This document shows positions 43,627 to 64,000 of a DNA stretch of 64,000 bases, piece after piece. The position numbers and the translations under genes are program-made. Below the pieces are notes generated by a model, which saw only the letters and a program-made list of their open reading frames with translations, was not told the DNA's origin and ran no database searches. Each line of letters opens with the position of its first letter. The stretch's first letter is position 1. Source of the DNA: Obrimoposthia wandeli (lineage: Eukaryota); contig CDROCS010000103.1 of assembly GCA_977020255.1 (NCBI GenBank), forward strand, positions 620,001-684,000. The letters run 5' to 3'.

Positions 43627-44313
43627 ATGTAATTTCATAATATCATCTTCAAACTTAAGTGAATAACATTTACAAAGTAAGAAAGTCTATTCTTTATACA
43701 TTCTTTTCGTTTCAACGACTAAGTTACAACGGAATTAATAGAAAATTAGTAAAAATATTAATTTATTTGAATATTTGAATGAGAGTTTGAATAAATGAGA
43801 GGTAGAATGAATGTAAATGAATAAAATTATGCATGTGTTGGGGTTTCTATACGAAACTTGGTATAGAGCCTCTTGAGTGCGGAGGGCCCCAACGTGAGTT
43901 CGATTAGAAGCAGGTCTTAAAGTTGGTCGTGGCCTACTTAGTGTTATGGTTGCCTAATCTCTTGTACTATCTGAAGGTATTTGATTTGATGTCTCTTAGT
44001 CTGAAGGGTGTAAAACAACTTGTTCTAATGTAGGAAATTGTTTATTTGTAATTCACGTAACTAACACAACAATACGTTTATGTACGTATTTCTAAAAAGT
44101 ATGATAAAATTCCTAAAGGACTTCTGTAAGTCTCTACAAGAAGTGGGGATGAACCACGTATCGATTTTACGTTCAGGTGATTAAGCTTTTAGGTTTGTTC
44201 TTCTTACTTAGGTTGGTTAATCTATAACGCAACTCTCTTAAATTTCTTCGCTCCTACTTCTTATCTCTAGATAAAGTTTCTTGGTTCCTTAACTCTATCT
44301 GTGTGTGTTTGAC

Positions 44314-44749
44314 CCGAATTGTCCACTGTGAACAATGGGTCTCCTAAAAACCTAATTGTCAAGATGACAATGAAAAACTTACTCCTAATTGTCAACTACG
44401 GACAATGAACGAACCGAATTGTCAGCTAGGGACAATGAGTCTTACCGAATTGTCTACTAGGGACAATGAGTATTTATCCGAATTGTCAACTAGGGACAAT
44501 GAATGAACCTAATTGTCAGCTAGGGACAATGAATCTTACGGGTAAAAAGTCTGGGTGTGATTCCTAATTGTCGCTGGGGACAATGAATAAATGTCAGATC
44601 TTAATTACCAACTAGGGGCAATGATTTTGTTAAAGAGTCGGATTGTCCTAATTGCCAGCTAGGGGCAATGAATCTGTGTATTAGTTTAAAATTTAGAATT
44701 ACCAACAAGGGGTAATGACAGTATCCTAATTGCCAACTAGGGGCAATGA
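44314..44749. repeat. Array of 12 ~25-bp palindromic units (6-bp arms, mostly 7-nt loop) with variable 5-30 bp spacers
   Basis: Consensus CCKAATTGYC-ARCTAGG-GRCAATGA; units at about 44314, 44351, 44384, 44414, 44445, 44478, 44508, 44563, 44600, 44647, 44694, 44725. Confidence 0.95.
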
Positions 44750-44891
44750 ATAGTTTAGTTGGTGTTCTTACCAGTTACGGCAACTAGTGGGACGTCCGAT
44801 GCAGGATCCGTAGATCTTTCGGAATCTTCTTCGAAACAGAGCTTATTACTTGTGGGAGGTTGAGTACACGCTTGAATATACTTTGACTTTG

Positions 44892-45463
44892 AATTATCTC
44901 CACTGACTTGAACCTTTAATACAATCAATTATCTCCACTGACTTGAACCTTTAATACAATCAATTAGCTCCACTGACTTGAACTTTTAATACAATCAATT
45001 ATCTCCACTGACTTGAACCTTTAATACAATCAATTATCTCCACTGACTTGAACTTTTACCTTTAATACAATCAATTATCTCCACTGACTTGAACTTTTAA
45101 TACAATCAATTATCTCCACTGACTTGAACCTTTAATACAATCAATTATCTCCACTGACTTGAACTTTTACCTTTAATACAATCAATTATCTCCACTGACT
45201 TGAACTTTTAATACAATCAATTATCTCCACTGACTTGAACCTTTAATACAATCAATTATCTCCACTGACTTGAACTTTTAATACAATCAATTATCTCCAC
45301 TGACTTGAACCTTTAATACAATCAATTATCTCCACTGACTTGAACTTTTACCTTTAATACAATCAATTATCTCCACTGACTTGAACTTTTAATACAATCA
45401 ATTATCTCCACTGACTTGAACTTTTAATACAATCAATTATCTCCACTGACTTGAACTTTTAAT
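44892..45463. repeat. 35/41-bp satellite, 16 copies, with a ~111-bp higher-order unit
   Basis: AATTATCTCCACTGACTTGAAC(C/T)TTTAATACAATC; 41-bp variants at units 5, 8 and 13. Confidence 0.96.
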
Positions 45464-45534
45464 GGACACTTGGCTTTTTGGACACGAGAACTTAATTGTT
45501 CGATTTGTGGTCAGGGAGTTGAATCCCGTATTTG

Positions 45535-45565
45535 TGATTTGGGTTTCTCCTGTCTGCCTTATATA
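45535..45565 (-). promoter_or_regulatory. Candidate LTR core promoter (TATA box plus initiator)
   Basis: Minus-strand TATATAA at 45565-45559 and TCA initiator with A at 45535, 30 nt downstream, oriented like the element's ORFs. Confidence 0.55.
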
Positions 45566-46255
45566 GAGGCACTGTACGTCAATCAATTGACAGCTGCTAA
45601 CGATTTGGTTCGGAAGATATCGGAGAGGCAAGGACTGGAATGTCAATCAATTGACAGCTGAAATTGAAATTTAGTTTACTGCACGAAAATGTGCTTACCT
45701 CTTGAAATCCTTGATTGACGTTTTTAATTAACCGTTTAATTTTCTGACTTTCTCCTTAATTAATTTTTTGTAACAATTGTCCTTTTTGGGTTAATTAATT
45801 TAACTTTTATACATTTTCGCATAATACACGACCTTCGTGGTCCTCCTAATTTTTACCCTAAATTCCACTAATTTTAATTTTAAAACTTAAATTAATATTT
45901 TAATTTAATTTTCAACCTTGCTTTCAAGGATTTTTATTTTAGTATTTAATCGACTAAAATATTTAAATTTCTTAATTCTCAATCCTAACATACCTCGGGG
46001 GTTTCAAAAAAGTTACGTCCCCGGAACGTATCGATTTTACTTAAATAAGCCTTTGGCTGTTGATTTTAGGTTCATCCCTACAAAATCAATCATTCAACTT
46101 CAACAAACATGCCCAAAAAAAAATTTTCCAAAATCCCGGTTTTTAGTGGGAAACATAATATATAATTTGGAGCAAGTCTCAAACCATACATTATTACTTA
46201 TAACAACTAAAAATTTACACAAAGGAAAGGTTCAAGGGTGATTGTCAGGGATATG

Positions 46256-46759
46256 TTAATTGTTCCTGTCTCGCAAGAATAGCAAGACCTGCTCCAGTGG
46301 TAGTTCTGGATACGATGGTGGGCCGCCATCGTACAGTATCATCTGCTGGCGCATGGTGAGGTGTTGACTCGGGTGGAAAATAGTTGTATATCGCCCGTGT
46401 ATTCCGCGATTTCTGAGCCATATTTGACGGCCACGCTGCCATGAGCGGGGGTCGCGAGTTGACCGGTATTTCTCGCGGAGGACGAGTTTCGCATCGCGAC
46501 GGCGCGCGATACAGTCGGGGCAATGGCAGTGCTCGCCACCAATACAGCTGGTGAGCGAATGGGTGCCCTTGTGGCGCCCTCGACACTGTAGTGTCCATTC
46601 CGCGAAGGGAGTACGGCAAAAGGGGCAATTGACATGTCCTTCGGGTCGAAGTCGGGCCCAAGTATATAGGCAGGATTCGTGGAATTTGTGACGGCAGCCG
46701 ACAGGGGATGCTGATACCGCCCAAATTTTCTCCATGCATACAGCGCACTTCATCTGCAT
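46256..46759 (-). CDS. RING-H2 protein 3 (167 aa) with extra Cys cluster and C-terminal PPSY motif
   Basis: CAVC...CRHKFHESC...CPFC (C3H2C3); SC...HCHCPDC; PPSY near the C-terminus; intact ORF. Confidence 0.88.
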   Translation of the reverse strand: MQMKCAVCMEKIWAVSASPVGCRHKFHESCLYTWARLRPEGHVNCPFCRTPFAEWTLQCRGRHKGTHSLTSCIGGEHCHCPDCIARRRDAKLVLREKYRSTRDPRSWQRGRQIWLRNRGIHGRYTTIFHPSQHLTMRQQMILYDGGPPSYPELPLEQVLLFLRDRNN

Positions 46760-47092
46760 AAGAAAATAACTCCTTTCAATTTGGGGTTCACCGTTCTCAT
46801 CGTTAATTTAAATTTTATTTCAAAACGAATCCTTAGTTATCTAATCCTATCGAGTTTTGTTTCGATTTTAGGCATGTTTACGCATTCACACTAAGCATAA
46901 AAATTGTCTTTTTAGAAATTCAGTATAATAATTACAATTTCAGTTAAACATCATACATAAAAATGGTAATGGTCAATTTACAGTTCACAAGATTATATAA
47001 TTATGATTACAATTATGGTAGCTAATTTATCGCGGTATGCGATACACAGGGTAGTTCATGATGTCACGTTCAAGTCAGAAAGTTACCTTCGA

Positions 47093-47398
47093 TTATTGTT
47101 GGGGATTGGGCTGGCCTGTGCTTCGCTCCTCCACGCAGAACGAGCACCAGCAATCGCAGATTGTTTTCCAGCAGTGTACGATGGGTACCACTGCTTGGAG
47201 GCTGTCTTGGTTGTACACGTAGTGTACTGAGAAGGTCGCTCTGCACATCGGGCAGGTTGGGAAGTCGAGGGGATTGTTGCTGTTGGCAATGGGGATCCAC
47301 GTCTCGAGGCATTCGACGTGGAAGAGGTGGTCGCAGTTGTTGGGCTTGGTGTAGAAGTCCACAATGCTCTCGTAGCAGATGGAACATTCTCCAGACAT
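47093..47398 (-). CDS. RING-H2 protein 2 (101 aa)
   Basis: CSIC...CDHLFHVEC...CPMC plus HCWKTICDCWCSFC; intact ORF. Confidence 0.9.
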   Translation of the reverse strand: MSGECSICYESIVDFYTKPNNCDHLFHVECLETWIPIANSNNPLDFPTCPMCRATFSVHYVYNQDSLQAVVPIVHCWKTICDCWCSFCVEERSTGQPNPQQ

Positions 47399-47458
47399 TA
47401 CTGTGGGAGGGTTGATGTTGAATTTGGGCTCGATTGAGGACTGGTGGTTGTGTGATGT

Positions 47459-47758
47459 TTACACAAAAGTGGTCTGATTTTGTCGATCTGACAAACAGTA
47501 ATAACACCAACACTCTCCGAAATTCTTCCAACAGAATACCACCTGTACATATACATCCTCTTGGTTGGGTTCTAACATGATGAATCTTGCGAATTGTCTT
47601 CTGCATACGGGGCAACAAGGGTATGTTGGATGTCCAAACTGTCCATAAGTTCTGATCCATGTCGATAAACATTCCTCGTGGTGTAAATGGTTGCAGGTTT
47701 CGGGTCTTGTTCTTCGTTCGGTTAGATCTTCCAAACATATTGGGCATTCTTCGGCCAT
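47459..47758 (-). CDS. RING-H2 protein 1 (99 aa)
   Basis: CPIC...CNHLHHEEC...CPVC plus FCWKNFGECWCYYC; clear paralog of RING 2. Confidence 0.9.
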   Translation of the reverse strand: MAEECPICLEDLTERRTRPETCNHLHHEECLSTWIRTYGQFGHPTYPCCPVCRRQFARFIMLEPNQEDVYVQVVFCWKNFGECWCYYCLSDRQNQTTFV

Positions 47759-47866
47759 TCTAAATACATGATGATGATTAATTTCTACATGAGTTTTATA
47801 TACTTCTACTATTTGTACAATCGCTTCTAGATATTTCTACATATTTCACACACTAATTTATCTACA

Positions 47867-47881: not shown

Positions 47882-50752
47882 TCATATCTTGATGGGAGGC
47901 GGAGGTAAGTCTAATTCCACTTCCTCCATGATGGGTGTGTCACAGCATCGCAATCCTTCGCATTTTCGTCGTATTCCTGGGCATACTTGACTGCCTTTTA
48001 CGCACACGATTGTCAATAAAACCACTGCTGTTGACACTACGGCCATTCCAATTAGGGCATTGACCGCTGTTATTCCGCTGTCTGATGATTTATAATCATA
48101 CTTCATTTTGTTGTTTGTTGGTTCGAATGACATTTCCATGGGTTTTGATCGGTTTCCATGTATTATGTCCGATTTTCTAAAAATTCGGGGATTTGGGTGT
48201 TTTGTTTCTGATGGAACAGGTATTATTATTTTGGATTGGAAATGATGTTTGGGATCTAGTGGGATCGTTCCCCTCACTCTTGTCCTCTTAATAATTGTAC
48301 TTTGGTTTCTGGACTTGGACTCTTTTTCTTTCGCTTCTGTCTTTGTTCTGATCACTGTCGGTTTTTCGGAATGTCGTTTACTTTCGTTTACTTTTGCCTT
48401 CTTTTTGACTAGGATTGGTCTTTTGGGAATGATTTTCCTGGGTTTGATACTTATACCGTATCTACGAAATCGACGGTTCTGGTATCTTAGAGTTATGTAG
48501 AATATTTCACCTGTTATTATCATGATTATGGTCGAGGTCTCTGTAGAATTACTGGCAATTCGATTACACAGACATTCTGTGTTAAAATGTGGTACTAACA
48601 TTTGGCTTTGGATTTCGAATCTGATTCCGCCATCTGGGTTGGGACACATTACTGTCACGCTGTCGGTTTCTAGCAATCTGAAAAATATCCTAACGGAATT
48701 CCATACGGCTTTGCGTCGTCTACCTGTGATCATAATCCTGTCGACAATTTTCCAGATGCGCTCATCTCTAGGCAATATTAATGACTTTGTTCGGATACTT
48801 TGGATAATCCGCTTCCTCTTTGATATTGTTATCCGTAGGTATAACACTCTTTCATGATACAATAATATTAAATTGTAATCGGGTGTATTTTGGTCGATTT
48901 TTATTCTGACCTGTCGGATGACATACAACTTCTGATCGATATTGTCAGTTGCTGACGTCTGTAGATGAATGTCTACTACGTGATCTGTTTTTAGTAGTGG
49001 AATTTCTATGTATACTGCCCGTATTACGTCTTGTCTCCATTTACTGATCATGATCTCATAACTAGCCTTGGTAGTGGTGATTTGTACGATCAGCATGATT
49101 CCTATGATCGTTCGATTCCTAAACTCAGGAACTTCAATGAAACAAGTCAAATTACTCATATAGTACGGTCTTTCCTCAATATGTTCATATATCGTTGGCT
49201 GGTACTCTGGTGCTGGTTCATCTAGAAATGGTGGTCTTGGTATAATTGTGTTGAATTTTTGTAAGTTCATTTGACCTGTTCGTCTTGCGAGATCATGCCT
49301 TTTCTTTTTTGATCTCAACTCTAACTTTGTACAACAAAACAAGATGAGTAATATTAATATTATAAATCCAATGATCAGTGCGAGTATTGGATTAACCAAT
49401 TCTAGAATACCGTAACGTACTGCTGGTATTCCTTTACTCTTGATGGTTAATATTTTAAATTTGTGTGCACTTTGGTTGGACATGTCACTGAGAAGCACTA
49501 TTTTAGTTTGTCCAAATATGTAGTCTTCACATGTGACAACACTAACTCCATAATGTCCATTAAGTGTTATCATTTCGGTCGCTGGGACTATACACATTCG
49601 TCCTGGACATCCTTTTACACACATGATCATCACGGCTCTACTGTGGGATGTCTTGATTATTTCCAGGGTGTTGTCTAGATTTCTCAAGTGTAAATTATAT
49701 TCGGATAGTGTCATCAATTCGGCTTTACTGGTTGGCATGGCTTGCAGTACCAATCCAATTACTACTCCATAAATCAATCCTTGTGCAACGGTGCACAGGG
49801 CCTTGACTGACCTTTTGCAAAGGGTTTTAATTATCAATCGTTTGAGAGATATCTGTTTCTGATTGGTTCGTTTTGTTGTCTGTCGTTGTTTTGACATCTC
49901 CTCGATTCCATCTCTTCCGATAATCAACTGTACCGGTTTACCTTGTATCGTCAACTTTCCGAATCCATTTTTGGCGGACAAGCATGTTTTATGTCCTTCC
50001 CTTGTTTCAATTATCACTCTCTTACTTCCATACTCACGTGTTTTGATGACATCGCCGTTGAATATATACGTTGGTCCTTTTGTATCAGCATCTTTTTGTA
50101 TTTCCTTTACAACTCGTTTTCTCCGCTTGCATCCGGCGAATGTTGTTGATATTCGGTCAAGTGTGTGCTGTCGGTCAGCTTCATAATATATTCGAAATTG
50201 ATTCAGTATTCTGTTTTGTGGGTAAAATATCGCTTCATTTACTATGTTGTCTTCGATCCTTTCGTCTAGATACACAAGCACTTTGTTCGTTGGTCCATTT
50301 GGTCTTTTCATCTTTACAAACTGAAATCTTTTACTGTCGGTTCTCATAGATCGAAGACATTTTCGGATGATCCATACATCAATTAGTCCTAACAACACTA
50401 ATAGCATCATTAGTGCCGGTGTATGGTACTGTATGGTGTAGTTGTGGATTTCGTTGAACCAGGAACTATTTCCGTGGTTGGAGCCTATCTCCTGTGCTCC
50501 CGTTATCGGCATTAGACAACTTAACAAGCCTATTGCTAACAATCTTTGGTATTGAAAGCTGGGCACTGTTGTTGTAGCTTCATTTGTTTCTCGTTGTTGC
50601 TTCCTCTTTTCGGTGTATTTTTCTATTTCTCGAACGAGTAACGGTTTGAATTCCGTATTTGGTCTATTCTGTTTGATGTAGACCATCGCTTCTTCTGGCG
50701 TGTGACCATGGTACTCTACCAACAAGGATACACCTATGGTAGGCGCTAACAT
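47882..50752 (-). CDS. 956-aa terminal reading frame: end of pseudo-DUSP, then three signal-peptide/ectodomain/TM units
   Basis: Open frame with alternating signal-like (LLAIGLLSCLMPITGA, GLIYGVVIGLVLQAMPTSKA, TIIGIMLIVQITTTKA) and TM-like (ALMMLLVLLGLIDVWII, PILALIIGFIILLILILFCC, ALIGMAVVSTAVVLLTIVCV) segments. Confidence 0.78.
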   Translation of the reverse strand: MLAPTIGVSLLVEYHGHTPEEAMVYIKQNRPNTEFKPLLVREIEKYTEKRKQQRETNEATTTVPSFQYQRLLAIGLLSCLMPITGAQEIGSNHGNSSWFNEIHNYTIQYHTPALMMLLVLLGLIDVWIIRKCLRSMRTDSKRFQFVKMKRPNGPTNKVLVYLDERIEDNIVNEAIFYPQNRILNQFRIYYEADRQHTLDRISTTFAGCKRRKRVVKEIQKDADTKGPTYIFNGDVIKTREYGSKRVIIETREGHKTCLSAKNGFGKLTIQGKPVQLIIGRDGIEEMSKQRQTTKRTNQKQISLKRLIIKTLCKRSVKALCTVAQGLIYGVVIGLVLQAMPTSKAELMTLSEYNLHLRNLDNTLEIIKTSHSRAVMIMCVKGCPGRMCIVPATEMITLNGHYGVSVVTCEDYIFGQTKIVLLSDMSNQSAHKFKILTIKSKGIPAVRYGILELVNPILALIIGFIILILLILFCCTKLELRSKKKRHDLARRTGQMNLQKFNTIIPRPPFLDEPAPEYQPTIYEHIEERPYYMSNLTCFIEVPEFRNRTIIGIMLIVQITTTKASYEIMISKWRQDVIRAVYIEIPLLKTDHVVDIHLQTSATDNIDQKLYVIRQVRIKIDQNTPDYNLILLYHERVLYLRITISKRKRIIQSIRTKSLILPRDERIWKIVDRIMITGRRRKAVWNSVRIFFRLLETDSVTVMCPNPDGGIRFEIQSQMLVPHFNTECLCNRIASNSTETSTIIMIITGEIFYITLRYQNRRFRRYGISIKPRKIIPKRPILVKKKAKVNESKRHSEKPTVIRTKTEAKEKESKSRNQSTIIKRTRVRGTIPLDPKHHFQSKIIIPVPSETKHPNPRIFRKSDIIHGNRSKPMEMSFEPTNNKMKYDYKSSDSGITAVNALIGMAVVSTAVVLLTIVCVKGSQVCPGIRRKCEGLRCCDTPIMEEVELDLPPPPIKI

Positions 50753-51060
50753 CGTACCTTTTTCTGATATATCAGAACGCCGTTTCCTTCTGTGACTTCA
50801 GCTTGGATGGTTTGAGTCAATTTCGTCAGATGTTGTTGTGCATCGTTTATTTCTCGATTGGAAGCATGTATGTATCGAGTGGTGTCGTCTTCAGTATTTT
50901 GACACAGACTAATTATCTCGTTTCCGACTTCAACAATGTTGATTACTCGGTTGATACTATGGAACTTCAATCCAGCAGTATCTATATCTCCTGGATGACA
51001 TAAAAATACTTTTGGCATTATCTGTGTAATTTTATCGACTCCGGCTAAAAATAACCCGGT
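50610..51060 (-). other. Degenerate second dual-specificity phosphatase domain (pseudophosphatase)
   Basis: ITQIMPKVFL, INRVINI, GNGVLIY, TIGVSLLVEYHGHTPEEAMVYIKQNRP parallel the first DUSP, but the P-loop reads YQKKGTMLA (no Cys/Arg) across a frameshift in an A5 run at ~50760. Confidence 0.7.
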
Positions 51061-51149
51061 CAATGATAATGCTTGGAGGAAATTCTTTTCCTTTGGATCC
51101 TCAGGAATGTCGTCCATCCGTCTTTGTTCTTGCAACAGAAGTTGGTAAT

Positions 51150-51548
51150 TTGCCAACTGTCCCAAAAATTAAGATTTGGGTTTGCAATACTTCTTCTCTC
51201 CTGTAGGTATTTTAGCGCTTCTAGTACCTGCATTCGTCTAGTCTTTATTAGGTATGCTAATACTAGAGTTGCTGATCGAGAAATTCCTTTCTGGCAATGT
51301 ACTAACACTTTTCCTTGGTTCCGGAGTTCTCTGTGAAGTATTTCGTTTGTTTCTACAAACCATTCAAGAAGATTAGCGTCCATTGAGTCTTTTACTCTTA
51401 ATGTCATAGCTCTGATCGTCTGATATTGCGATTTGTGATTCATTGTAACGTTGATCACATATGTTATCCCTTGTTCCAACAGTTTCTTTTCATCTGTTGC
51501 ATCCTCCACATTTCCGAGGTATAACTTACCTGGAATGATCTCACTCAT
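51150..51548 (-). CDS. Dual-specificity protein phosphatase domain fused downstream of integrase
   Basis: SEIIPGKLYLG, GITYVINVT, VKD (general-acid loop), VLVHCQKGISRSATLVLAYL (HCxxGxSRS at 51299-51273), RRSIANPNLNF. Confidence 0.95.
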
Positions 51549-52059
51549 TGGTGGCGTTAATTCTGACTCTTCAAGTTTTAGTCTTTCTAATCTCTTCTCT
51601 ATCTGTTCGTCGATGTTGGATAGTTTCGCCAGTTTCTTTCCTCTCAGCATTCGTATTGCTGGAGAGATATTCATCTTTGTCTCTGATGTCTGTTCCTTTG
51701 TTGAGTCTTCTTCCGACTCGGTCTCTTCTGCAGATTTAATTCGTCTTTCTTGTATATTCTGTTTCACGAATTCTATATTTTGTCTTTTTCTGCTCTCTTT
51801 AGCGAATTCAACCTCCATGGTTCTTCCGAATCGCTCTATTATGTTATCTTCGGATTCTGTTGATTCTGTATCGTTACTTTCCGGTTCACTGTCTTCACTA
51901 GACTCGCTCGAAGGGTATTCTGGTATGTCTGTCTGAACTGAAATTAATGAAGGGGTTAGAATAATTGGGTTGATTTCCCCTTCGTATTTGTGAATCGGAT
52001 ACGGTATTACACTATCTTTAAGTATCTCAACTTGGAACTGTGCTCCATAGCACATGACA

Positions 52060-52985
52060 ATTGTTTCTAATTTACCCATGATGGACAATCCATCGAAATA
52101 GGTAACATTCAGCTTAGATATCGGTGTCTTCGCATAATTAATTAAGTTTACTCGTATCTCGGTTGATGACGGCCATCGATTTTTTAGTAAAATTATAATT
52201 TCGTCGTTTATCGATGTAATTACACTTGGTGCGGATGATACTATTTCAGCATGATATTTTGGCTGGATTGAGTTGGTCACTTGTTCTCGGATCATATTGA
52301 TTCTTTGTGGCTTTTTATTTTTAGCTTCCCACTTCCGGTATCCGCTGTCAATGCGTAATTCTGCCGTTGCTTTGATGATTTTATTGTTAGTCACTTCCGG
52401 ATGGGTTGGCGAATGGAATCCTTCTATTACGCTCAACCTTACAGATACTTCCGTTTGGTCTGTATCTAACCGGTGAGATTCTGGTATACAACATACAATT
52501 GTCTTTCCATCAAAGTATTTGGTGTCCATCTGACAAATTATCTTTTCAGTGTCAGCGTCAATTAAATGGACTCTCATGATATCTCTTTTCCCATGTGAAT
52601 TACGTAATACCATTATTACATCGTGGTATTCTTGTTTGAGTCTTTTTGGTGTACCATGCAGTATGTGACCACCGGCCGGTTCTTTTTCTTCCTGACTGGC
52701 TAGTCCTGCTTCAGTACTGTCATAGTTCTGCCATGCAACTATGTTTGGTGTCAATGTGATTTCGATTATCACTTTCTCAGTCGTAAACACATTGGAATTT
52801 TGATAAAGTGCTGCGACTAGTGTATTTCCGTCGTAGTATGACACTCTAAGTTCGCACAGAAATTCGTTTGTCAGTGCATCTTTCACAATGACTTCTTTAG
52901 CCACATCTGTCGGTTGTGTTTTTTCGAAAACAACTATTATCTCTTCGTCTTCTTCTAATATCTCTTGTGGTGCGATGTGTCGGAT
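52060..52985 (-). other. Three ~65-aa related beta-rich repeats (possible IPT/TIG-like)
   Basis: Shared pattern I...P....e(I/V)I..L.n....i.V...d....i..l.v.Y(Y/F)DG.t(I/L) at ~52979-52800, 52667-52477 and 52247-52065. Confidence 0.65.
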
Positions 52986-53229
52986 TACTTCCTTTTCCTC
53001 TTGGTACTTCATTCTGAGCATACCAATTCTCGCTGGTTTTTTCTCGCTACCACTCGTCATCGTGTTTATGTAGTTCCGATCACTTATCATTCGTGTAAGT
53101 TTAATGGTATTGGTGTTCGATTTCGATTTCTGTGATCTTAACTCATATCGTGACGCATTATCTTTATTTGGTACTAATTTGCATCGATTTGCATGTACAA
53201 TCATCGGTTCCTTGTTCCGATTCTCTTCG

Positions 53230-54210
53230 TTGATTACTTTCAAATTTGTTGAGGTTGTCTGGATCACTTTGTACGGTCCTTTGTATGGTCTATGAAGTTT
53301 AAACGATAGACCTGGTTCGATGACTGGATAAAATATCATCACTTGATCTCCGACTCTAAATTCATGTGGTTTTGCTTTTTTGTCGTATTGTTCCTTGTAA
53401 CCTTCTTGATTGAATTTCAACTTCAATCCGGCTTTGGTCCAAGCATCTTGTAACCTTTCCTTCATAACGACAATGTATTGTTCAGTTTCTAGGTACTGAG
53501 ATGTTGGCTCGGTCCACTCCAGATCCATTGGCATATTGTTCTGTCTGAGATACATCAGATAGAATGGTGTGTGACCCGTCGCCTCTCGAACTGAATTCCT
53601 GTAAGCATATAAACATGAAGGTAAATATTTATCCCAATCCTCTTGCTTGTCTGAGCAATAGGATTGTACCATCATACATAAAGTTTTATTAAACCTTTCT
53701 ACCAGACCATCTGTCTGTGGGTGATATGGTGAAGTTTGTAACTTCATGATTCCGAATATCTTCGATACTGCTTTTATGACTTCTCCAGTGAAGTTCTTAC
53801 CTTGATCCGTTAACAACTTTCTAGGCACTCCGTATCGAAATATTATCTCTTCCACTAAGATTTGCGCTATTGTTTCAGCTTTCTGGTTCTGCATGGGATA
53901 TGCTTCTACCCATCTCGTCATGTAATCCGTAAATACTATGACATACTTGTTTCCTTTACTTGATTCTCTCAATGGTCCCAATATATCCATCGCTGTGAAT
54001 TCCATTGGTGCCAAGGGAACTGGCATTGGTTTCAACGGAACTTTAGTACGAGTTCCGGTGTCTTTTCTGGTTAAACATACTTTACATTGTTTACACCATT
54101 GTTTTATGTCGTCTTCCATACCATCCCAATGGTACTTCTCTTTGATTCTGGCTATCGTCTTTCGCCCTGACAGATGTCCTCCTAGTGTTCCGTCGTGATA
54201 CTGGATCATC
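53230..54210 (-). CDS. pol: Integrase (HHCC zinc finger, DDE core, GPY/F-type C-terminal module)
   Basis: HDGTLGGH...CKQCKVC, AMDILGPL, TDQGKNF, SPYHPQTDGLVERFN, YKGPYKV; inside the 1309-aa ORF 51060..54989. Confidence 0.97.
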
Positions 54211-54499
54211 ACTGCTGTTTTCAATGACTTCGGAATTACTACTACTATCTTTCCGACGTTATTGACAATATACAAGATTCCTTCTTTTATCAGTATTTTC
54301 TTCGTCATTTCATCGTTTAGATCTCCTTTCACCAACAATTCTTTAATTAGACTCAGTTCTTCATCTTCTTTCTGTTCTTTGATGATCTCTTTGTCTATTT
54401 TACCCGTCTTTAGCAAAATCGTCAGTAGATTTGCTTCTCCTTTTTGATCATTGGTTTCATCTTCTTCTGGAATTATGTTTCCTTTCTCGTCTACATTTG

Positions 54500-55800
54500 T
54501 CAATCTCGATAAACAATCTGCGTTGCCGTTCGACTTTCCGGTTCTATAACGGATTTCTAGATCGAATTCGGCCAATTTTAGAAACCATCTGTTTAATCTA
54601 CTCATCTCATCTCTATGTTTATACAAGAACTGTAGTGGTTTGTGATCTGTATACAGGAATACTTTTTGTCCTAGCAAATAGTGTCTGTACTGTCTACATG
54701 AATACACTATGGCTAGACATTCCTTTTCGATAACAGAGTATCCTCTTTCGGCTCTGTTTAATCCTCTACTCGCATACGCAATGACGTGTTCTCTTCCTTC
54801 GTCATCCTCTTGTCCCAATACTGCTCCTACAGCATAGTTACTTGCATCTGTCATAAGTATGAATTGTCGGTTTATATCTGGAAACGCTAATATCGGTGCT
54901 TTTATCAATCTTTCTTTTAAATGCTCGAACGCTTGTTGGGCTTCTTCTCCCCATATGAACTTCTCATCTTTTCTCGTCAACTTTCTCAATGGTGTTGCTA
55001 TATCTGAAAAATGTTCAACAAATCGTCTATAATAATTCGCAAGACCTAAAAAACTCTGTATCTCCTTAACAGTCTTTGGCGCTAAATGCGCTTTTACTTT
55101 CTCGATCTTTGCTGGATCAGGTCGAATGCCTTCTTTCGATACTATATGTCCTAAAATGTTACTCGCTCTTTAGCCCATTCGCATTTTGTAGGTTTAACTT
55201 TTAATTTAGCGTTTTCCAGTCTTTTAAATACAACTTCAAGATTTTTTAAATGTTCTTCGAACGTTTTCGAAAATATTATTATGTCATCAATATAAACCAT
55301 CGTGTTTGCACGATGCGAGTACAAAATTCATGCAACGCTGAAATGTTGCTGGAGCTCCTGGCAGTCAGTCGAATGGCATCTTTTCGCATTCGTATAATCC
55401 ATCTCCGCAGGAAAAGGCTGTTTTGTGTTTATCCTCTTCCTCTATCTCGATTTGCCAGTATCCACTCTGCAAATCTAATGTTGTAAAATAATCTGAATTA
55501 CCCAATTTATCGAGCATCTCTTCGATTCTAGGTAATGGATACACATCTTTTCTTGTGATCTTGTTCAGTTCTCTGAAATCTATACAGAATCTCATTTTCC
55601 CATCCTTCTTTTTTTACCAACACCACAGGTGCTGAGAATGGCGAAAAACTCGGTCTAATTACTCCTGTTTTAGACATGTCTTCGATCTGACTTTTTACTT
55701 CATCTTGTAATTGTAATGGTACTCGATATGGTCTTCTTCTGACTACTTTGTCTTCTGTCAGTGGTATTGTATGTTTTATGACAGGTGTTTCTCCTATGTC
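54500..55800 (-). pseudogene. pol: Reverse transcriptase and RNase H, frameshifted
   Basis: PYRVP, SPFSAPVVLVKK, RFCIDFRELN, YPLPRI, LDLQSGYWQI, YIDD, LGHIVS, FLGLANYYRRF, TDASNYAVGAVL, EKECLAI, TDHKPL, NADCLSR. Confidence 0.97.
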
Positions 55801-56259
55801 ATATGGATTTTTTGCAATTACTTTTGGAAATTTATGTATTAGATCAAGTAATTGTTTCTTTTCTCTAGTTGTCAGTCTTTCTGATTGGATTACTATTTCT
55901 TCGTAATCATTCGTATCTTTATCGAGTTTCATAGCACACACGGTGGAATTCTCCATCTGTGCTATCTTTCCCAACCTCATTCCTCTGTATAATAGAATGT
56001 CATTGTTGGTTGTATTCATCAGTCTAACTGGTATTTTGTGGTTTTCGATCAGACATACTGTACTCACAACTGGTAATTCGTATTTCTCTATGAAATCTCG
56101 TGATGGTTCGAACACAACTGGTCCTTTATCTTCTGATAATGTGTGACCTTGAATGAGAAATTGTGATCTTTTACCGATTTTTATAGGATTCTCTATAATT
56201 ACATCAATTTGGTTTATTTGTCTGTTTGATGTGCTATCCTTCAATCTTGGATCTTGTAA

Positions 56260-56560
56260 ATCAATACTTATCCCTTTAAGTTGTGATAGTACATCCATTC
56301 CTAAAATTGTAGGTTCAGGACATTCTTTCATGATTCTAACTGGTATAGTGATCGTATTACGTCCAATTATAAATGTACATGGTAATATTCCGTCACTTTT
56401 ACAGGGTCTCCATTGACCGATACCAAGAATTCATCTGGTTCTGCCATTGTTCGTTTCTGTTCCTCTGTCAAACAGTCTTCACTTACTATCGAAGCCACAG
56501 CACCTGTATCAATTAAGGCTTTTACTCTTAAATTATTTACTCTAATGATAGCTGCTGGTC
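56260..56560 (-). other. Retroviral-type aspartic protease 2 (adjacent to RT)
   Basis: KALIDTGAVASIV (DTG at 56510-56502) and, after a frameshift, TILGMDVL. Confidence 0.92.
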
Positions 56561-56684
56561 GCTGTGCTCCATTTATGTTTCCCATATGGTATATTGTATT
56601 TATCGAATTATTACACTCTGTCAGTCCACTTCCTATGTTTGGATAGTGAAATCTAATATTTCTCACTTGTCGATCTATTATTCT

Positions 56685-57680
56685 TCGACAAATCGGACAT
56701 GATACCATTTTATTCGCACATCTCCGACATGTTCTTACATGTCCGCATGGTAGAAAAGGCAACTTCTATTTTGTTGACCATGCAAACTGCGCATTCCGGA
56801 TCTTCTAGTACGTATTCTAGTTCATTTATGTACTCTTTTCTCTTTTGTTTCAATTGTACTGTCATCTTTATCTCGCAGTAATTCAAAAAATCGATCCGTA
56901 TCCATTTCGCGTAGTTTTTATTTTTAATTCTACCAATTCTCTGATTCTTTCTGCTTCTTTTGGATATAACCTTCTCACGAATGACACTACCGGTGTGTCT
57001 TGTTGAGCCAAAATCTCTTTCCGTGTGATTTGGTATTCGATTATACATTCGGTTTTTCTGTTCTTTTTTGCTTTATTTTGTTTTTAAAAAGTACAAAATT
57101 CGCAAAATTCATGATGTAAAAATTTTCTTAGGTAGCTCAAGAGTGTATCTGTCGATAATTCATTCTTTTTTACACTTGTGGCAATAAATTAAGTCTTTAC
57201 AATACTTTTTTATAGCAAAAAGTCCCTTTTTTGCCAATTTTTTAAGTCTTGGGTCTTCGAAGGTTATTTCTCGATACTGTTCGTCACATTCGTTCACTTC
57301 TCGCATAACTTCGAATATATCTTCAATTCGACTATTCGTTATTACTCTTCCTGTTATTAGAGCTGATTCTCCTTTTGGAATCCCGTCACTGTAATCGAAA
57401 TCGGGTGCTTTTCCCGTTTGGATTTCTGGTACGTTTGACGTTTTAAGTTTCAAAAGAAATGGACAATTTGGTGCATCTCTTTTATGACGTCTCATTGGGT
57501 TTTCATTCTGTTCCCATTCTCTAAACTTTACTCTACACCATACGCATCGTACTACTATCTCCTGACCATAACTACTTGTCGCGTTTAACATTTCTAGGCC
57601 TGATCTTGCCATTTTACGTGCCATTCCTTTTGAATAGTACTGTTCTAATATATTTCGTCTCTTTCTCTCGAATCTCATAG
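56685..57680 (-). other. IAP-like module: intact BIR, degenerate second BIR, C-terminal RING-HC
   Basis: CVWC-x16-H-x6-C at 57546-57463; LAKKGLF..CHKC..HHEFCEF (frameshifted); CAVC..F/LPCGH..C..CA....CPICR at 56793-56685. Confidence 0.92.
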
Positions 57681-57919
57681 GATCCTTTTCTGACAGATTC
57701 ACGTATGTTATTTTTCTCCTCGTCGTATCTTGTGGTCCGAAATTTACATTTTTGTAGTGAAGTATCGACTTTGCTAGCGCTTCCTGTTTTTTTGTCTGGG
57801 TACGAACTTCCCATACGGAACGTAGTGCATTTTTCCTTTTCGACTATAGGTCCTCTCAACATTTTTATCTCTCTCACTGAACTGTCATTCTTATAACTCT
57901 TGTTGTTTGGTAGTATTAT

Positions 57920-58210
57920 TATTCCTTCAAACATTCGTATTACGTCCATCCCAATCATGACTGGACTACCGCAATCTGTGAATATTCTAGCATTTAACTG
58001 TAATGCTCTTCCATCGATATTCAATGAACATTTCAGTGTTCCTTCCGACACTACATCTGTACCATTCACGTTAACAAATGTCTGTTTTCTAGGACATACT
58101 TCTCTTAATTCTTTTGATGACAAGATTTCTTTACTCAGTACTGATACTGCAGATCCGGTATCAACTTCGGCAAGATATTCTCTTCCGTTCAATGTTACTG
58201 CTACTTGTGG
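57920..58210 (-). other. Retroviral-type aspartic protease 1
   Basis: LAEVDTGSAVSVL (DTG at 58162-58154) and VMIGMDVI. Confidence 0.92.
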
Positions 58211-58559
58211 TGGAGCATTTGGATTCTCATTTGATATTCTAGATTTCAGAATTCTTCTGGAATTATCTTTTGTCTTTTTCCTCTGCTTGTGGAATTTCAC
58301 TGTAGCTTACTTTAGGCCATCTTATCATTAAGATGCCTCTCTTGAACTTTCCTTTTCTTCCTTCAATTCCTTCATTGGATATAAGTTTAACGCCACTTCT
58401 TCCTTGTCTGGTAACGGAATCTTTGGTTTTCCTGGTATCTTTGCATATACTCCTGGACTATCATTATCGTCGTCGTTGTCGTCTCGATAGTTTCTTGGTT
58501 CTCTCATCATGGTTCTCGTTTGGTGTTGTTCCTTCTTGAGGGCTCGCAACTCGTTCTCG

Positions 58560-60414
58560 TGATGATGGTGCATTAGATATTTTGCTAAAAATGGAAAACA
58601 TCCAATTATAAGTTGCCAGGTGATTCCGGTTATCCTGTATAAACTATACGTAGACAACACCTGGGCTATAATTACCTGCACAAATTTGGTATAACATAAA
58701 TACCTATGATACCCGAAAATAATTGTCCTAAAACAAGGAATTTCCCCACATCTTTCTAAGTGTCTGATGTGCTGCTTCCTTGAAATGACTTGGCGATAAT
58801 AACATATCGAAATTCACATATCTCGCTCCTGGCGGTAATGCTCGATGTACCATCTCCGTAAGTACTCTGGCTCTTCTTACTGGAAACATTATTTCGTTCC
58901 ACGCCGCTTTTAAATCTTTTCATTGTACAATCCTGCGTTCTCCATATTTTCCACCGCTTGGAATTTCATTTTACCTTTAAGATTCGTCATTCTTATCATC
59001 GCTGGGGTTTTCGTTGGCTTCCGATCAGGTAACGTTATCCATAGATTATTCGTCATCTGATATTCAGGTGCCATTATATTAGAGCAGCTGATTTCTTGAG
59101 TTGGAGTGTCTTTTGGAAGTAACATTCTCGTGATTGGTTCAACAAAAGATCTTTTAAATTATACGTTACTGCCAATTCACTCGTACATCGATCTGTTTTC
59201 CTCAACTGTACCTCTACTTTATTACACTTGTAAGTATACAATACTTCTCCCATGGTTTTAGCAAATACTCCTTCATCCAAGGGTAATAATGGTGCTACCA
59301 TGTCTGGATTCGTAATAGCTAATGCTAACTTTGTTCTTACGATCTCTTTATTTAACTTCAGCAATCTCTTTCGATCATCATCCGATATAACTGTTCCATT
59401 TGCATCAATCCTTTATGATAATAGAAATCAATTTTTATTATTAAAATGCGTGTGTAACTGCATATCTTTTTTGGTTTTAGCTTGGTTTCTGCCAATGCTA
59501 TTGCTTCTTTAGACAAAACTATTCCTGGATAGTTTGTGGTACTAACAGTCATTCCGCATCGCGCTTTGTTTCTCTTTTTAATAAATATCAATCCTTCTTC
59601 TATTGATGTTGCCATTAACAGTGTAGGTGTCTTTGTCATTGGAATTGGTCTTGTTTCATTTAGCAATCCTTTTCCAACTTTATTATACAGGAATCCTTCT
59701 CCATCTTTATTATACAGGAATCCTTTTTTTTATTAAAACTAATCTCTTTCAAAAATACTAGGAGCATTGCTTCGGATTTATGTGATACACAATTGTGGAT
59801 TCACCTGTAAAACAAGATGCATCTGTCATTTTACATTCTGGATACTTCATCATTAGTTGTGTCTTTTTATCAAAATTGGCGGTCCATGTTTTTAATTCAA
59901 TTTTGTAAGTTACGTCCATTACTAACTCGGTTACTTTGGTTCCACGCACGTTTTTTGTTCCTCCGTCACAAGATCCATCGGCCCATCGTTGTCCGACTCT
60001 CGTGACTGTTTCGTATCGTCTCACTCCAATTTTTACATCAGGTTTGTAATTCTTGTCTACCTCTATTGTTCCCGTTCGAAATGCGTCTTCGCAATCTCTC
60101 GGCAAAACCTTATGTGCCTTGTACGGTGTGGTAGGTGTGATTTCTGACATAAAACTTCTATGGCCACAATAGAATTCGTGATAACTTGAATGGATTGAAC
60201 ATTCTTTCACTTCTACTTGTACTTTATCAACATCCTGATACAGAAAGTAGTTTTCAACACCTTGAACTTCTAGTTTTGACGGTTGTGATTCTGGACAGTC
60301 TTCGCTGTCAAGCAGTGAATACTTTTGTCCCATCTTTGGTATGCTACAGTCATATGCTATCAATCCTGATGCCTGTTGCATTCCCATGAACATTACTAAC
60401 ATCATCATCATCAT
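58560..60414 (-). pseudogene. env: Envelope glycoprotein of the chuvirus/BEL-Pao-associated type, frameshifted
   Basis: Signal-like MMMMMLVMFMGMQQASG, then LIAYDC, YSLLD..DC, FYCG, DGSCDG, GEVLYTYKC.KVEV..R.TDRC..EL.V, F.EPITR, C-terminal TM pair LGQLFSGIIGIYVII and YSLYRITGITWQLII; recognised from memory of chuviral G motifs. Confidence 0.82.
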
Positions 60415-60534
60415 TGTTGTGGACATATTTGGTTGATTGTTTCTCTCTTTCGGACGGTATTGTTTATTTTCCCTTTGACGATTCTCATGACATTGTTCGT
60501 CATCGTCTTCATTCATTTCCACAATGGTTTTAGC

Positions 60535-60900
60535 ATAGTCACTTAATTTTGCCCAACCTCCATTTTCGTCAATTCGTCTCTGTAACACATTCTCGATCAA
60601 ATACATCGCTTCATTTATTCCTTGTTTGACTTCGTGAGGTTGGCTCGTTCGTTCCGTCAATTGGAAACATAGATATGTGATCGCTGTAATTAACTTTTTT
60701 ATTTGTAGTCTGGTTTCCACATAGTCTCGCTAAAACTTCACCAAATCAGATAATCTATCTATGGATGCATGGTATACATGATTCGCGGTCATTCTCTTTA
60801 CTGCAGACATCTGTGATCTGACTGCTTTAGTCAAATTGTCTGTTATATCGGTTGTTTCATCTCTGTACATTTTAAACAACTTCGGCTTCACTTGCCTGAG
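60535..60900 (-). other. Bcl-2-like helical domain
   Basis: VLQRRIDENGGWAKLSDY matches BH2 (WIxxNGGWxxF); upstream LQIKKLITAITYLCFQL sits in the BH1 position but lacks NWGR; one in-frame stop at 60732-60730. Confidence 0.62.
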
Positions 60901-61600
60901 AATTCCCGTAAGTATATCTTTACTACTTGGAGTTTCCGAATTCATATCACCTCTGATATCTTCATTCCTATCTGCACTATACTGCTCTAATGACGCCGCT
61001 AACTGTCCAATACTTAGATGTCTTTCTTCATCAGTTTGTGGTGCAGTTAGAACATTTCGTAATATACTTTCGCCTTTTCTAGGTCTTTAGGTCCTCTTCG
61101 AAAATACTGATACTCAGTTTGATTCTCTCCTGGATCATACGTTTCACCATTATACTGCATCTCGTGACTTGGTCCTTCTTCATGGCCAATCTCTTTTTTG
61201 TCGCATCATTTGCTCTGCTTGTCTATCTTTGTATGCAGCATGCCAAATTGGTGAATCCAAATCTACAATCTCGGAGACTTCGTCTTCTCTACTAGTTGGG
61301 TTACGGTTTCGTTTTGTCTCACTTGGTTAGCTGTATCCGTGACTTCATCTTGTCTGATTGGAATTATATCTGGTTCTGGTGGCACCTCGACCACTGGAGT
61401 TGTCAACTCATTTTCTAAATTCATGTCTTGTAATTCAGTTACGTACGGTTCTGGTGTGATGTCTTGTTCCAAGCTTCAGCTACATCATTATCTCCGCTTT
61501 CACTTGAACTGTCTAAAATTTCTATAGGCGTTTTTATCATTTCTTTTAACGCAGAATTCAATATCTCGGTTAATCCTTCATTATCTACTAACTCTTGACG

Positions 61601-61833
61601 TCCTACAGTGATGACATCAATTTTTTCCTCTAATTCATTTCCTATCGGATATCCAAACTCGACTGGTACGTCCTCATCATCTAATGATCTCCCTTTATAA
61701 TGGAACAACATATTCATTCCATCGAATTTCAAGTTTCTCAGCCAGCTTTTTCCAGAATCGTTTTCATTGTTTGATACACGTTAAGTTTTTCATGTATTAT
61801 CTGTCCGGAAATTAATCGAAGTGAAATTTTCAT
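61601..61833 (-). other. Ubiquitin/SUMO-like domain
   Basis: MKISLRLISGQIIHEKLNVYQTMKTILEK, then (A5-run frameshift) LKFDGMNMLFHYKGRSLDDEDVPVEFG...KIDVITVG follows the beta-grasp pattern. Confidence 0.62.
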
Positions 61834-62699
61834 CGTTCCTTTTGGTTTGATCTCTGTACATAACGACCATAACCTTTCAGTAGTCCTCGGTACTTCTTTG
61901 TAACCCAAGTTATCATGACTATGTTTAACCAATTCTGCTCGCACTTCTTCAATCGGTGCATTGCACTTTAATTGTTTGCAATTTGGCCAAAACTTCTGGA
62001 GCTTCACTCGTTTTCATCTAACGGTTGATTCAACGTTTCCTTAGCTTCACTAATTATCTTTTTTTACATTTTCCATACTCGTTGCATTTCTCGCTGCTTC
62101 ACATGATCAGCCATAGGTTGTGCGTTACACGTTTTCTCTATTGGTGTCTCATGCGCTTCTAATATTCTATTCATTAAATCATTCATCTCTTCTCTCGAAT
62201 GTGAACCTTTCTCTTGCACTCGACAACGTAGATGAATTCGCCATCTTTGTATGTGGTGAATCTTTTAATTATTCCCAACATTCGTTCAAATTTACTATCA
62301 CTATCTTTGAAATCTGTTATTTCGCGTCGAAGCTCGGTCTCGCGATTCCTATCACTAATCATCGCTTACATAACTAAAATTTCCTTTCGGTTTCGGCGAA
62401 TCTCTCTCATTATTTGTCTTGTCGACATTATTATTATTATATCTACCAGAATTATTATATCTCTCAGCTCCTTGCTGTCCTACGTATTATTGTATCTCTC
62501 AGCTCCTTGTAATGTAATGCTGCATAGTTATTATCTACCTGGTGACTGTTGTCTATCTGTATACTGATTATTCAGTCTCCATATGGCTGTGGAGTATATC
62601 CACCACCTCTATTCCATGGCGAGGTGAATTATATCCTCTATAATTATTTCCAAATTATTATTACCGAAATTATTATTTCCAAATCTGTTAGCTCGAACT

Positions 62700-63985
62700 C
62701 TTTACTTCTCGTACCATCTCTCGAATAAGTGACCCATTTGCTTACACGTGTAACACATTATTCTCCCTCGAATATCTATCTTATTTTGTTTTCATCTTCG
62801 AACTGTACTCGACGACTATTCTGTCTATTATCGTAGCGTCCTCTAAAAATCACATTTCTTCCGGAATTCGATTCAAAACCGCCCTCGATTATTGAATCTT
62901 CCGTCACTATTTCCTGCCATTTATTCCAAATCGAGTCACTTCGCTCTCTCTCTGTTGGCGTTATAATTCCTATCGTCTCCTCTCCAAGGTTGGCGATTTC
63001 CTGAATTATCTCTATTAAATCTATTCCTGGAATCATCTCTATTTCTATTCCACAGTCATTATTATTTCTACACTCTTGAATCATCTCGATTCCTGTTCCC
63101 AGACTCACTATTATTTCTCCTCGAATCATCTCCCGTTCCTACTTCGGGAAATTATCTCTATTTCCGTTGCACAGTTCCATCTACTTTTTCAAACTTATTT
63201 TGTCCATAATTTCGATTCTGAAAATTATCGGTTCTGTTTTATTCACGAAGACCTTTGTCTTATCGTCGTCACCTGCAGTCATTGCGTAAATTGCCAATGC
63301 TGCGTTATTTTTTGCTATTTCTCAATCTCTCTCTCTCGCCTTTCGCACGGCGTTATCAAAATCATTTGTATCCGATACTGCTAATAACACTTTAATATCC
63401 TTTTTCAATCCTCACTCTAAATATATCTAACAAGACCTCTGCCATTTCATTTTGGTTCCGGTCATTTTCCGCTGCTTGTGCTTCTGGAGCTACAGGATTA
63501 CCGTCCTGATTTCTCATTATTCTTCTTGGGTACGCTCTTGCGGCCAAGGTTCTCAAAAAACATACGCGCTATTCATTCACGCCTTCGTCATGTTTCTGTT
63601 TCCGTTCTCTCATGAGTCGCTTATTTACTTTGGCTAAATCTCCTAATACCAATTTTCAATAAAAGCATTTTTCCAACGTTGGCCAGTCTAAACGTTCTGC
63701 TTCTGTCAAATGTTTATACACTTCAAGTGCTAATCGGTTAAATATTGCCTGTACTTTGACACATTTTTCTTTATCGTTCCATCCTTGAACATCTGCACAA
63801 CTCGGAGTATTCTGCGAGGAAGTCACAAATACTTTCCTCATCTCCTTTAAACTTTGTAATCTGCAATGATCCTGAAAATTGGAGTCTCAACGTCGCATTT
63901 AAAGAAGCATTGCCAACTGCTCGGCATTCATGTCACCTACATTATTTCACTGCATTAATATCTGCTTGAGCTCTGGTTGAGCCAT
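62700..63985 (-). pseudogene. gag: Gag: capsid domain, N/R/D-rich linker, CCHC zinc knuckle; heavily frameshifted
   Basis: ITKFKGDEESICDFL, GWNDKEKC, RKQKHDEGVNE, DFDNAVRKARE; CYTCKQMGH at ~62755-62729; candidate ATG at 63985. Confidence 0.85.
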
Positions 63986-64000
63986 ATCTTCCAACTATAT

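Follow-up and report, generated by a model that had tools for sequence, protein, structure and literature searches.

Two retropepsins flank a BIR-RING protein throughout a family of giant Gypsy elements in Obrimoposthia wandeli

Why should the polyprotein of a retroelement carry two aspartic proteases, and why should an IAP lie between them? This question is raised by a window of 64,000 nucleotides from Obrimoposthia wandeli (the whole stretch of DNA analysed here), in which a preliminary description had noticed two proteases with Asp-Thr-Gly (DTG) motifs bracketing a BIR-BIR-RING protein. The arrangement is indeed present, on the minus strand at 56200–58300. It belongs to a broken copy, also on the minus strand, of a Burro-like Gypsy element of about 23 kb, whose polyprotein runs in the order gag, ubiquitin-like, Bcl-2-like, env, first protease (PR1), IAP, second protease (PR2), spacer, RT, RNase H and integrase, continues with three TIG-like repeats, a phosphatase, a degenerate phosphatase and a membrane tail, and is followed by three RING ORFs. 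From 5′ to 3′ along the element, the features of the window copy are:

60730..64000, minus strand: gag (Retrotrans_gag, CCHC knuckle), ubiquitin-like domain and start of the Bcl-2-like region; broken in this copy
58472..60729, minus strand: env, a fusion glycoprotein of mononegavirus type; it is in frame, preceded by the Bcl-2-like region and followed by PR1
58320..58334, minus strand: I-L-M-I-R, a putative cut site ahead of PR1, with Arg in 44/48 copies
57857–58225, minus strand: PR1, the extra retropepsin (Pfam gag-asp_proteas, E 8e-7)
58154–58162 and 57944–57955, minus strand: DTG and I-G-M-D motifs of PR1
57854..57868, minus strand: I-K-M-L-R, a putative cut site where PR1 meets the IAP, with Arg in 63/65 copies
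57670..57856, minus strand: N-terminal extension of the IAP, fast evolving (omega 0.82)
57436..57669, minus strand: BIR1, canonical zinc ligands and variable surface (Pfam BIR, E 1.6e-13)
57096..57288, minus strand: BIR2, divergent spacing, strongly kept across copies (pN/pS about 0.1)
56867..57020, minus strand: UBA-like helical stretch between BIR2 and RING (weak assignment), also in Polinton IAPs
56670–56793, minus strand: IAP-type C3HC4 RING (E 2.6e-8)
56583..56603, minus strand: candidate core-type tetrads between RING and PR2, also found before the single protease of family D, an env-carrying Gypsy family of the same genome
56206–56573, minus strand: PR2, a canonical retropepsin, orthologous by position to the one protease of Gypsy elements
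56502–56510 and 56293–56304, minus strand: DTG and L-G-M-D motifs of PR2
55930..56205, minus strand: spacer separating PR2 from RT, with 33% identity to family D
51060..55758, minus strand: RT, RNase H, integrase, three TIG/IPT-like repeats and dual-specificity phosphatase
47882..51168, minus strand: degenerate second phosphatase and long polyprotein tail with membrane segments
46256..47836, minus strand: three short tandem RING-finger ORFs downstream of the polyprotein
43836..45991, minus strand: 3′ LTR with TG...CA ends and a 35-bp tandem repeat

The 5′ end of the element is lost at the end of the contig (C103), 753 bases past the window. Compared with one sister, the window copy has indels at 23 places between 55163 and 59898, 22 of which shift the frame; nine of these places fall between 57787 and 56389, and many adjoin one-letter runs. 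Because of this heavy damage the single polyprotein is visible only in sister copies; in the window copy the RING and the start of PR2 are in one frame. A complete sister (the C499 copy) measures about 23.2 kb, with 1907-bp LTRs that are 98.6% identical and a 4-bp target-site duplication, while a second complete copy has LTRs 96% identical and no such duplication, which is thus found in one of the two complete copies. The polyprotein comprises about 5400 residues by coordinates, and uninterrupted frames of more than 4600 residues are present. The TG...CA ends of the LTRs and the order PR-RT-RNase H-integrase are those of Gypsy (Metaviridae) LTR retrotransposons. The env matches Pfam Monjiviricetes_fusion (E 1e-25 in the window copy, E 8e-72 in a sister) and ends in a membrane segment by hydropathy, and the matches to Retrotrans_gag (E 0.005), ubiquitin (E 0.003) and Bcl-2 (E 0.03) in a sister copy are all below the cut-off. 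For the spacer no Pfam match was obtained; in the available text of PMC6431247 this position in Burro elements is dUTPase-like.

Several further observations concern the element. The three TIG/IPT-like repeats after the integrase (51060–53200, minus strand) reached an Atlas score of 0.91, with weak recognition; together with the intact and degenerate phosphatases they are possibly decoys for host signalling. The three RING-finger ORFs between the polyprotein and the 3′ LTR (46256–47836, minus strand) are kept in sister copies. An AT-hook-like motif was seen by eye between the ubiquitin-like and Bcl-2-like domains of one copy (L030, gag to env region), and at G000:C1068:272501-313000 (L030–L033) several elements lie head to tail, apparently with common LTRs, as a tandem array. 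Another sister element is adjoined by two tandem intronless copies of eIF5A (L022:7610-8811).

By its architecture, as the available text of PMC6431247 describes Burro elements, the element appears to be Burro-like. It resembles the Burro/GYPSM1 elements of Dugesiidae planarians in encoding a single polyprotein (about 5000 aa) in which gag, ubiquitin-like, Bcl-2-like and in-frame mononegavirus-like env are followed by protease, dUTPase-like spacer, RT, RNase H and integrase, and in its BIR cargo and long LTRs (PMC6431247, in the part available). In the element the env is in frame between gag and pol, and the ubiquitin-like and then the Bcl-2-like domain precede it (weak Pfam matches). It differs in its size of about 23 kb with 1.9-kb LTRs, in its single gag knuckle, and in its TIG repeats, phosphatases and RING ORFs; furthermore, no match to MATH or ankyrin domains was found in it, which is another difference from Burro/GYPSM1. 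Since its length of about 23.2 kb falls short of the >30 kb of Burro, it is called Burro-like and is not Burro1 itself. BIR and Bcl-2 cargo is already known from Burro elements, but as described there Burro/GYPSM1 has one protease after env and no BIR-RING IAP between two proteases (PMC6431247, same part). Literature searches on giant LTR elements with IAP repeats, Burro with BIR, Polintons with IAPs and LTR elements with two proteases, including the available text of PMC8532177 and PMC13238120, gave no description of an LTR element with two proteases or with an IAP between proteases; the figures of the primary Burro study (Grohme et al., 2018) may already depict such an arrangement.

The PR1-IAP-PR2 layout is real and family-wide. 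A DNA search for sister copies gave 4733 candidates, of which 40 were scored and 20 loci taken: the whole cassette aligned in 19/19 sister copies, and PR1, BIR, RING and PR2 are in one stop-free frame in nine of the 20 loci. Copies selected by their env have PR1 in 30 of 30 cases, continuing into the IAP in 29, the exception being deleted into RT. Counted as matches over all loci taken, some of which overlap, the RING lies upstream of PR2 in 60/60 PR2 matches, env directly before PR2 in none, and IAP sequence follows PR1 in 98/100 PR1 matches. Among older copies (79–95% identical, n=32) PR1 is kept in 24 and both proteases in 11, the rest having larger deletions; the cassette is seen in copies down to about 80% identity, and the copy tree is ladder-like. 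No duplication was found at six candidate junctions. A nested insertion is refuted by this census of copies. The preliminary description had held that its proposal would be refuted if PR1 and the IAP were missing from sisters or flanked by a target-site duplication, or if one protease had decayed in the consensus; instead, practically all copies contain the cassette, and purifying selection maintains the active sites of the two proteases.

Family D of the same genome offers a comparison with a single protease. It has gag, env, protease, spacer, RT, RNase H and integrase in frame, like the element considered here, and is 47% identical to it in env, 61% in RT and 36% between its protease and PR2. 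It differs in having one protease and, in 13 stretches, no IAP, Bcl-2, ubiquitin-like or phosphatase domain and no I-x-M-[LI]-R motif; one RING match and one TIG match were found in these stretches. As a family (L114–L119, L130–L136) it is young (98–99% identical) and very abundant; gag, env and pol share a frame, gag has three knuckles, and the tail is rich in membrane segments.

The two proteases of the cassette are 29% identical over 118 residues, aligned without gaps (E 6e-18), and each has DTG and a downstream hydrophobic-G-M-D motif, as retropepsins do. The predicted structure of PR1 (pLDDT 75) resembles the retroviral proteases of HIV, FIV and EIAV (E 3e-6). PR2 aligns ungapped to HIV-1 protease and retains Arg8 and Leu23, as does the family D protease; both residues are among those of the active-site cavity in the available text of PMC3185505. 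In PR1 the place of Arg8 is taken by Pro in 63/65 copies and that of Leu23 by Glu in 60/68. The DTG is unchanged in all young copies (22/22 for PR1, 23/23 for PR2). In older copies the Gly of the PR1 G-M-D motif is altered in 8/21, and Glu23 is altered in 8/68 of all copies; these active-site changes are scattered over the copy tree and consistent with a G-to-A decay bias, and a sublineage with dead PR1 was rejected. To the family D protease PR1 is 29% and PR2 36% identical. The phylogeny of the proteases allows either PR1 with PR2 (p-AU 0.15) or PR2 with family D (p-AU 0.06), so that PR1 may have come from duplication or from capture. Elsewhere in the assembly, a Ddi1-like protease exon was seen in five or more near-identical copies (L231, L235–L238).

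Selection on both proteases is purifying in comparisons across copies of the kind that had been proposed (dN/dS). The pN/pS ratios were taken from variants common to several copies, which reflect active lineages. Across the copy sets they are 0.23, 0.16 and 0.11 for PR1 and 0.09, 0.09 and 0.07 for PR2 (all p<1e-6); the values of 0.23 and 0.09 are those of older copies, compared with about 0.7 for private changes, and those of 0.11 and 0.07 come from young and RING-selected copies, after 6/29 loci were dropped as non-family, duplicate, old or deleted (L016 lies outside the young set). Our own codon model gave an omega of 0.14 for PR1 and 0.11 for PR2. PR1 is less constrained than PR2, the difference being not significant (p 0.58).

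The protein between the proteases was called a complete IAP in the preliminary description. BIR1 has the exact CX2CX16HX6C spacing that had been stated (57463–57546), and the RING is of IAP type as claimed (43.5 bits against cIAP1, in addition to the E value above). BIR2 is divergent: its spacing is CX2CX18HX6C or CX2CX19HX2C, and its Pfam score of 17.6 bits is under the cut-off of 22.9, so that it is not a second canonical BIR, yet its Cys/His residues are conserved. The UBA-like stretch has no Pfam match and aligns weakly with cIAP1 (3.4 bits). The RING forms the C-terminus of the IAP, followed by about 20 linker residues unless cut. A predicted structure of the IAP reached pLDDT 39.

Constraint is uneven along this protein. 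BIR2, the UBA-like stretch and the RING have pN/pS of 0.1–0.2, while the N-terminal extension and BIR1 evolve fast, with about five-fold more amino-acid change at similar synonymous change (amino-acid to synonymous counts 105:49 versus 29:62 in the rest of the IAP, Fisher p 4e-8; dN 0.31–0.34 versus 0.05–0.08) and with fixed zinc ligands. A site test on the N-terminus and BIR1 gave an LRT of 18.6 (p 9e-5), or 13.0 after codons near indels were dropped. BIR1 alone gave no signal of positive selection, and the control of BIR2, UBA-like stretch and RING gave a weak one too (LRT 7.7); the claim is therefore limited to fast evolution, and adaptive sites, few and mostly in the extension, are only possible.

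Where, then, may the IAP have come from? The genome has 12110 BIR candidates, of which 150 were scored and 30 taken. The best candidate is a survivin-like host BIR without RING, while at least 27 of the 30 loci taken lie in repeats that carry a BIR-RING gene as an ORF of its own. Their c-integrase, type B polymerase and inverted repeats of about 600 bp identify these repeats as Polintons. Loci of Polinton IAPs are:

L066:1132-2034, L070:952-1974, L088, L092, L096 and L074

The retroelement IAP is collinear with the Polinton IAPs end to end, from the N-terminal extension to the end of the RING, with 34–38% identity (55–59% in the RING), and their start aligns to it from near 57790. They differ from it as stand-alone intronless ORFs, and one family is without a second BIR. 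The retroelement IAP scores 153–169 bits against Polinton IAPs, 59 against cIAP1 and 65 against the single database match, which is an unrelated BIR-BIR-RING protein. Sequence comparison thus places the retroelement IAP nearest to the Polinton IAPs of its own genome, and not to the survivin-like host BIR or solved animal IAPs. An IAP tree against host and baculoviral IAPs had been suggested; in the tree made, whose taxa are without host RING-IAPs and baculoviral IAPs, the retroelement IAP is sister to all Polinton IAPs (89/97). These comparisons suggest a transfer of the IAP between Polinton and retroelement, in one direction or the other. Searches of protein databases, the ESM Atlas and viral and metagenome contigs gave nothing comparable outside the genome, blanks that signify neither absence nor novelty. 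Stand-alone BIR-RING genes without introns occur in two or more high-copy Polinton families, some of which also have a dual-specificity-phosphatase-like gene. Short ORFs at 260–646 and 2514–2912 of the window resemble, by eye, Polinton remnants (polymerase C-terminus).

Baculoviral IAP3 has a BIR-RING architecture. Like cIAP1, DIAP1 and baculoviral IAP3 types, the retroelement IAP combines BIR with a C-terminal C3HC4 RING; unlike them, it is inside a retroelement polyprotein, its BIR2 is divergent and its BIR1 carries a Lys, in 56/65 copies, at the presumed IBM-groove position, where BIR3 of cIAP1 has Gly. K, R, L or V at the groove position block IBM binding, according to the available text of PMC13159474. 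BIR1 thus appears not to be a type II BIR with an open IBM groove. Direct caspase inhibition by the retroelement IAP is doubtful because of this Lys, and a ubiquitin-ligase role driven by the RING would be likelier than direct blocking of caspases.

The host background can be sketched from the assembly. The multi-copy cox1 follows table 9, with AAA at positions of Asn, AGR at Ser/Ala and ATA at Ile, a mitochondrial code common to flatworms and echinoderms; a flatworm host would be compatible with it. Bacterial cox1 genes are numerous in the assembly too, and another animal cox1 there has a mitochondrial code of a different type (G000, L127); these are probably from the microbiome and prey. In the window itself, an 899-codon host ORF (27938–30637, minus strand) encodes PAN domains together with one domain of peptidoglycan-amidase (PGRP-like) type. 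Among 30 RING loci taken in the genome, four are non-family and without a BIR match within 1.5 kb, and a host RING-IAP may still be present beyond these loci. Platyhelminthes are reported to have lost RING-IAPs in the available text of PMC13159474, the main text of which never names Schmidtea or Macrostomum.

How the polyprotein may be cut is suggested by short motifs at the boundaries of its domains. The pattern I-x-M-[LI]-R is found five times in this element family, where 0.15 occurrences would be expected. One site lies before PR1 and one at the PR1/IAP boundary, two precede TIG repeats 1 and 3, and the fifth precedes the phosphatase. The motif is retained in older copies and occurs 0 times in about 3000 residues of family D. 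The motif was chosen post hoc, an equally good best pattern arising in 13/300 shuffles (corrected p about 0.04), and the two TIG sites lie within homologous repeats and hence are not independent. Neither the ubiquitin-like nor the Bcl-2-like cargo has it. V-R-N-I-R at the RING end fits a relaxed form and was not counted, as it is also present in Polinton IAPs. The core boundaries have similar tetrads without Arg, and the first and fourth residues are hydrophobic at all boundary sites; in retroviral sites the P2 residue is often beta-branched (PMC3185560, in the part available). From the sequence pattern, the I-x-M-[LI]-R motifs are putative cleavage sites. Site-like tetrads are conserved on both sides of the IAP, which agrees indirectly with the earlier proposal that a free IAP is excised; the cleavage itself is a prediction.

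These observations can be joined in one reading, to which we give a probability of about one half: a Polinton-related IAP sits inside the polyprotein between two conserved proteases, of which PR1 would cut Arg-type cargo sites and PR2 the core sites, freeing the IAP. PR1 may have arisen by duplication or capture and then gained an acidic pocket, in which its Glu, presumably placed in a particular subsite by HIV numbering, would read the Arg three places after the cut. PR1 would then cut the Arg-containing sites at cargo boundaries, PR2 would do the ordinary core sites, and one cut from each would free the IAP. The two proteases would each act as a homodimer, as retropepsins do in the available text of PMC3185560. 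The division of processing proposed earlier is supported to this extent, with the predicted line falling between cargo and core sites and not between env-side and pol-side sites. The freed IAP would be a ubiquitin ligase, anti-apoptotic or immune-damping mainly via its RING, and would be predicted to keep the host cell alive.

Other arrangements have to be weighed against it. Both proteases could be active with overlapping specificity, the second being kept for position or dosage; each would cut its neighbours, free the IAP and detach pol from the membrane-bound env, and the Arg motif would be incidental. The conservation of both PR1 and PR2, the hydrophobic first and fourth residues common to all boundary sites and the modest corrected significance of the motif (13/300) agree with this. 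It is nonetheless rather unlikely, for the fixed charge change in the PR1 pocket coincides with Arg sites that are absent from the single-protease family, and a divergence of 71% between PR1 and PR2 exceeds what redundancy needs. Smaller still are the chances of the intramolecular pair that the preliminary description had raised, in which PR1 and PR2 of one chain form an asymmetric enzyme, with the IAP of about 430 residues looped out, so that processing goes on without dimerisation of precursors. Equal lengths, an ungapped alignment, a linker that is long enough and the solved structures of engineered tethered HIV protease dimers would allow such a pair, and an asymmetric site would suit an asymmetric motif; however, only 29% of residues are identical, terminal strands included, the conserved site-like tetrads on both sides of the IAP would have the tether cut, and family D manages with one protease.

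It is improbable that PR1 has become dispensable for catalysis and persists as a scaffold or regulator, one that damps PR2, say, or dimerises the IAP. The missing Arg8, a charged residue at a normally hydrophobic place and the greater distance of PR1 than of PR2 from the family D protease (29% vs 36%) point that way, but the Asp-Thr-Gly of PR1 is invariant in the 22 young copies, the departures in old copies are scattered decay, and its omega is 0.14. Next to nothing speaks for the cassette as a functionless nested insertion or assembly chimera of the window copy, apart from the heavy frameshifting of that copy: against it stand 19/19 sisters, 29/30 env-selected copies and older copies with the layout, one frame in 9/20 loci, six junctions without duplication and purifying selection throughout.

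Returning to the reading with divided cargo and core cleavage, a wider picture may be drawn only tentatively, with the odds somewhat against it as a whole. The second protease, with its charge-reversed pocket, would be a dedicated cargo-release enzyme; the IAP would have come from or gone to a Polinton; mobile elements of two unrelated classes, numbering thousands of copies, would carry the supply of RING-IAPs in a lineage reported to have lost them; and an arms race would be under way at the IAP N-terminus.

The usual teaching is that in retroviruses and LTR elements a single protease serves every site of the polyprotein, and here is a natural element with two. The predicted split of specificity would make it a testable model for the co-evolution of protease specificity and cleavage sites, and for the uptake of cargo by giant polyproteins. 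The IAP that both carry would document gene exchange, within a single genome, between Polintons and an LTR element. Finally, the element makes testable an open suggestion in the available text of PMC6431247, namely that Burro elements may manipulate the apoptosis and ubiquitination of their hosts.
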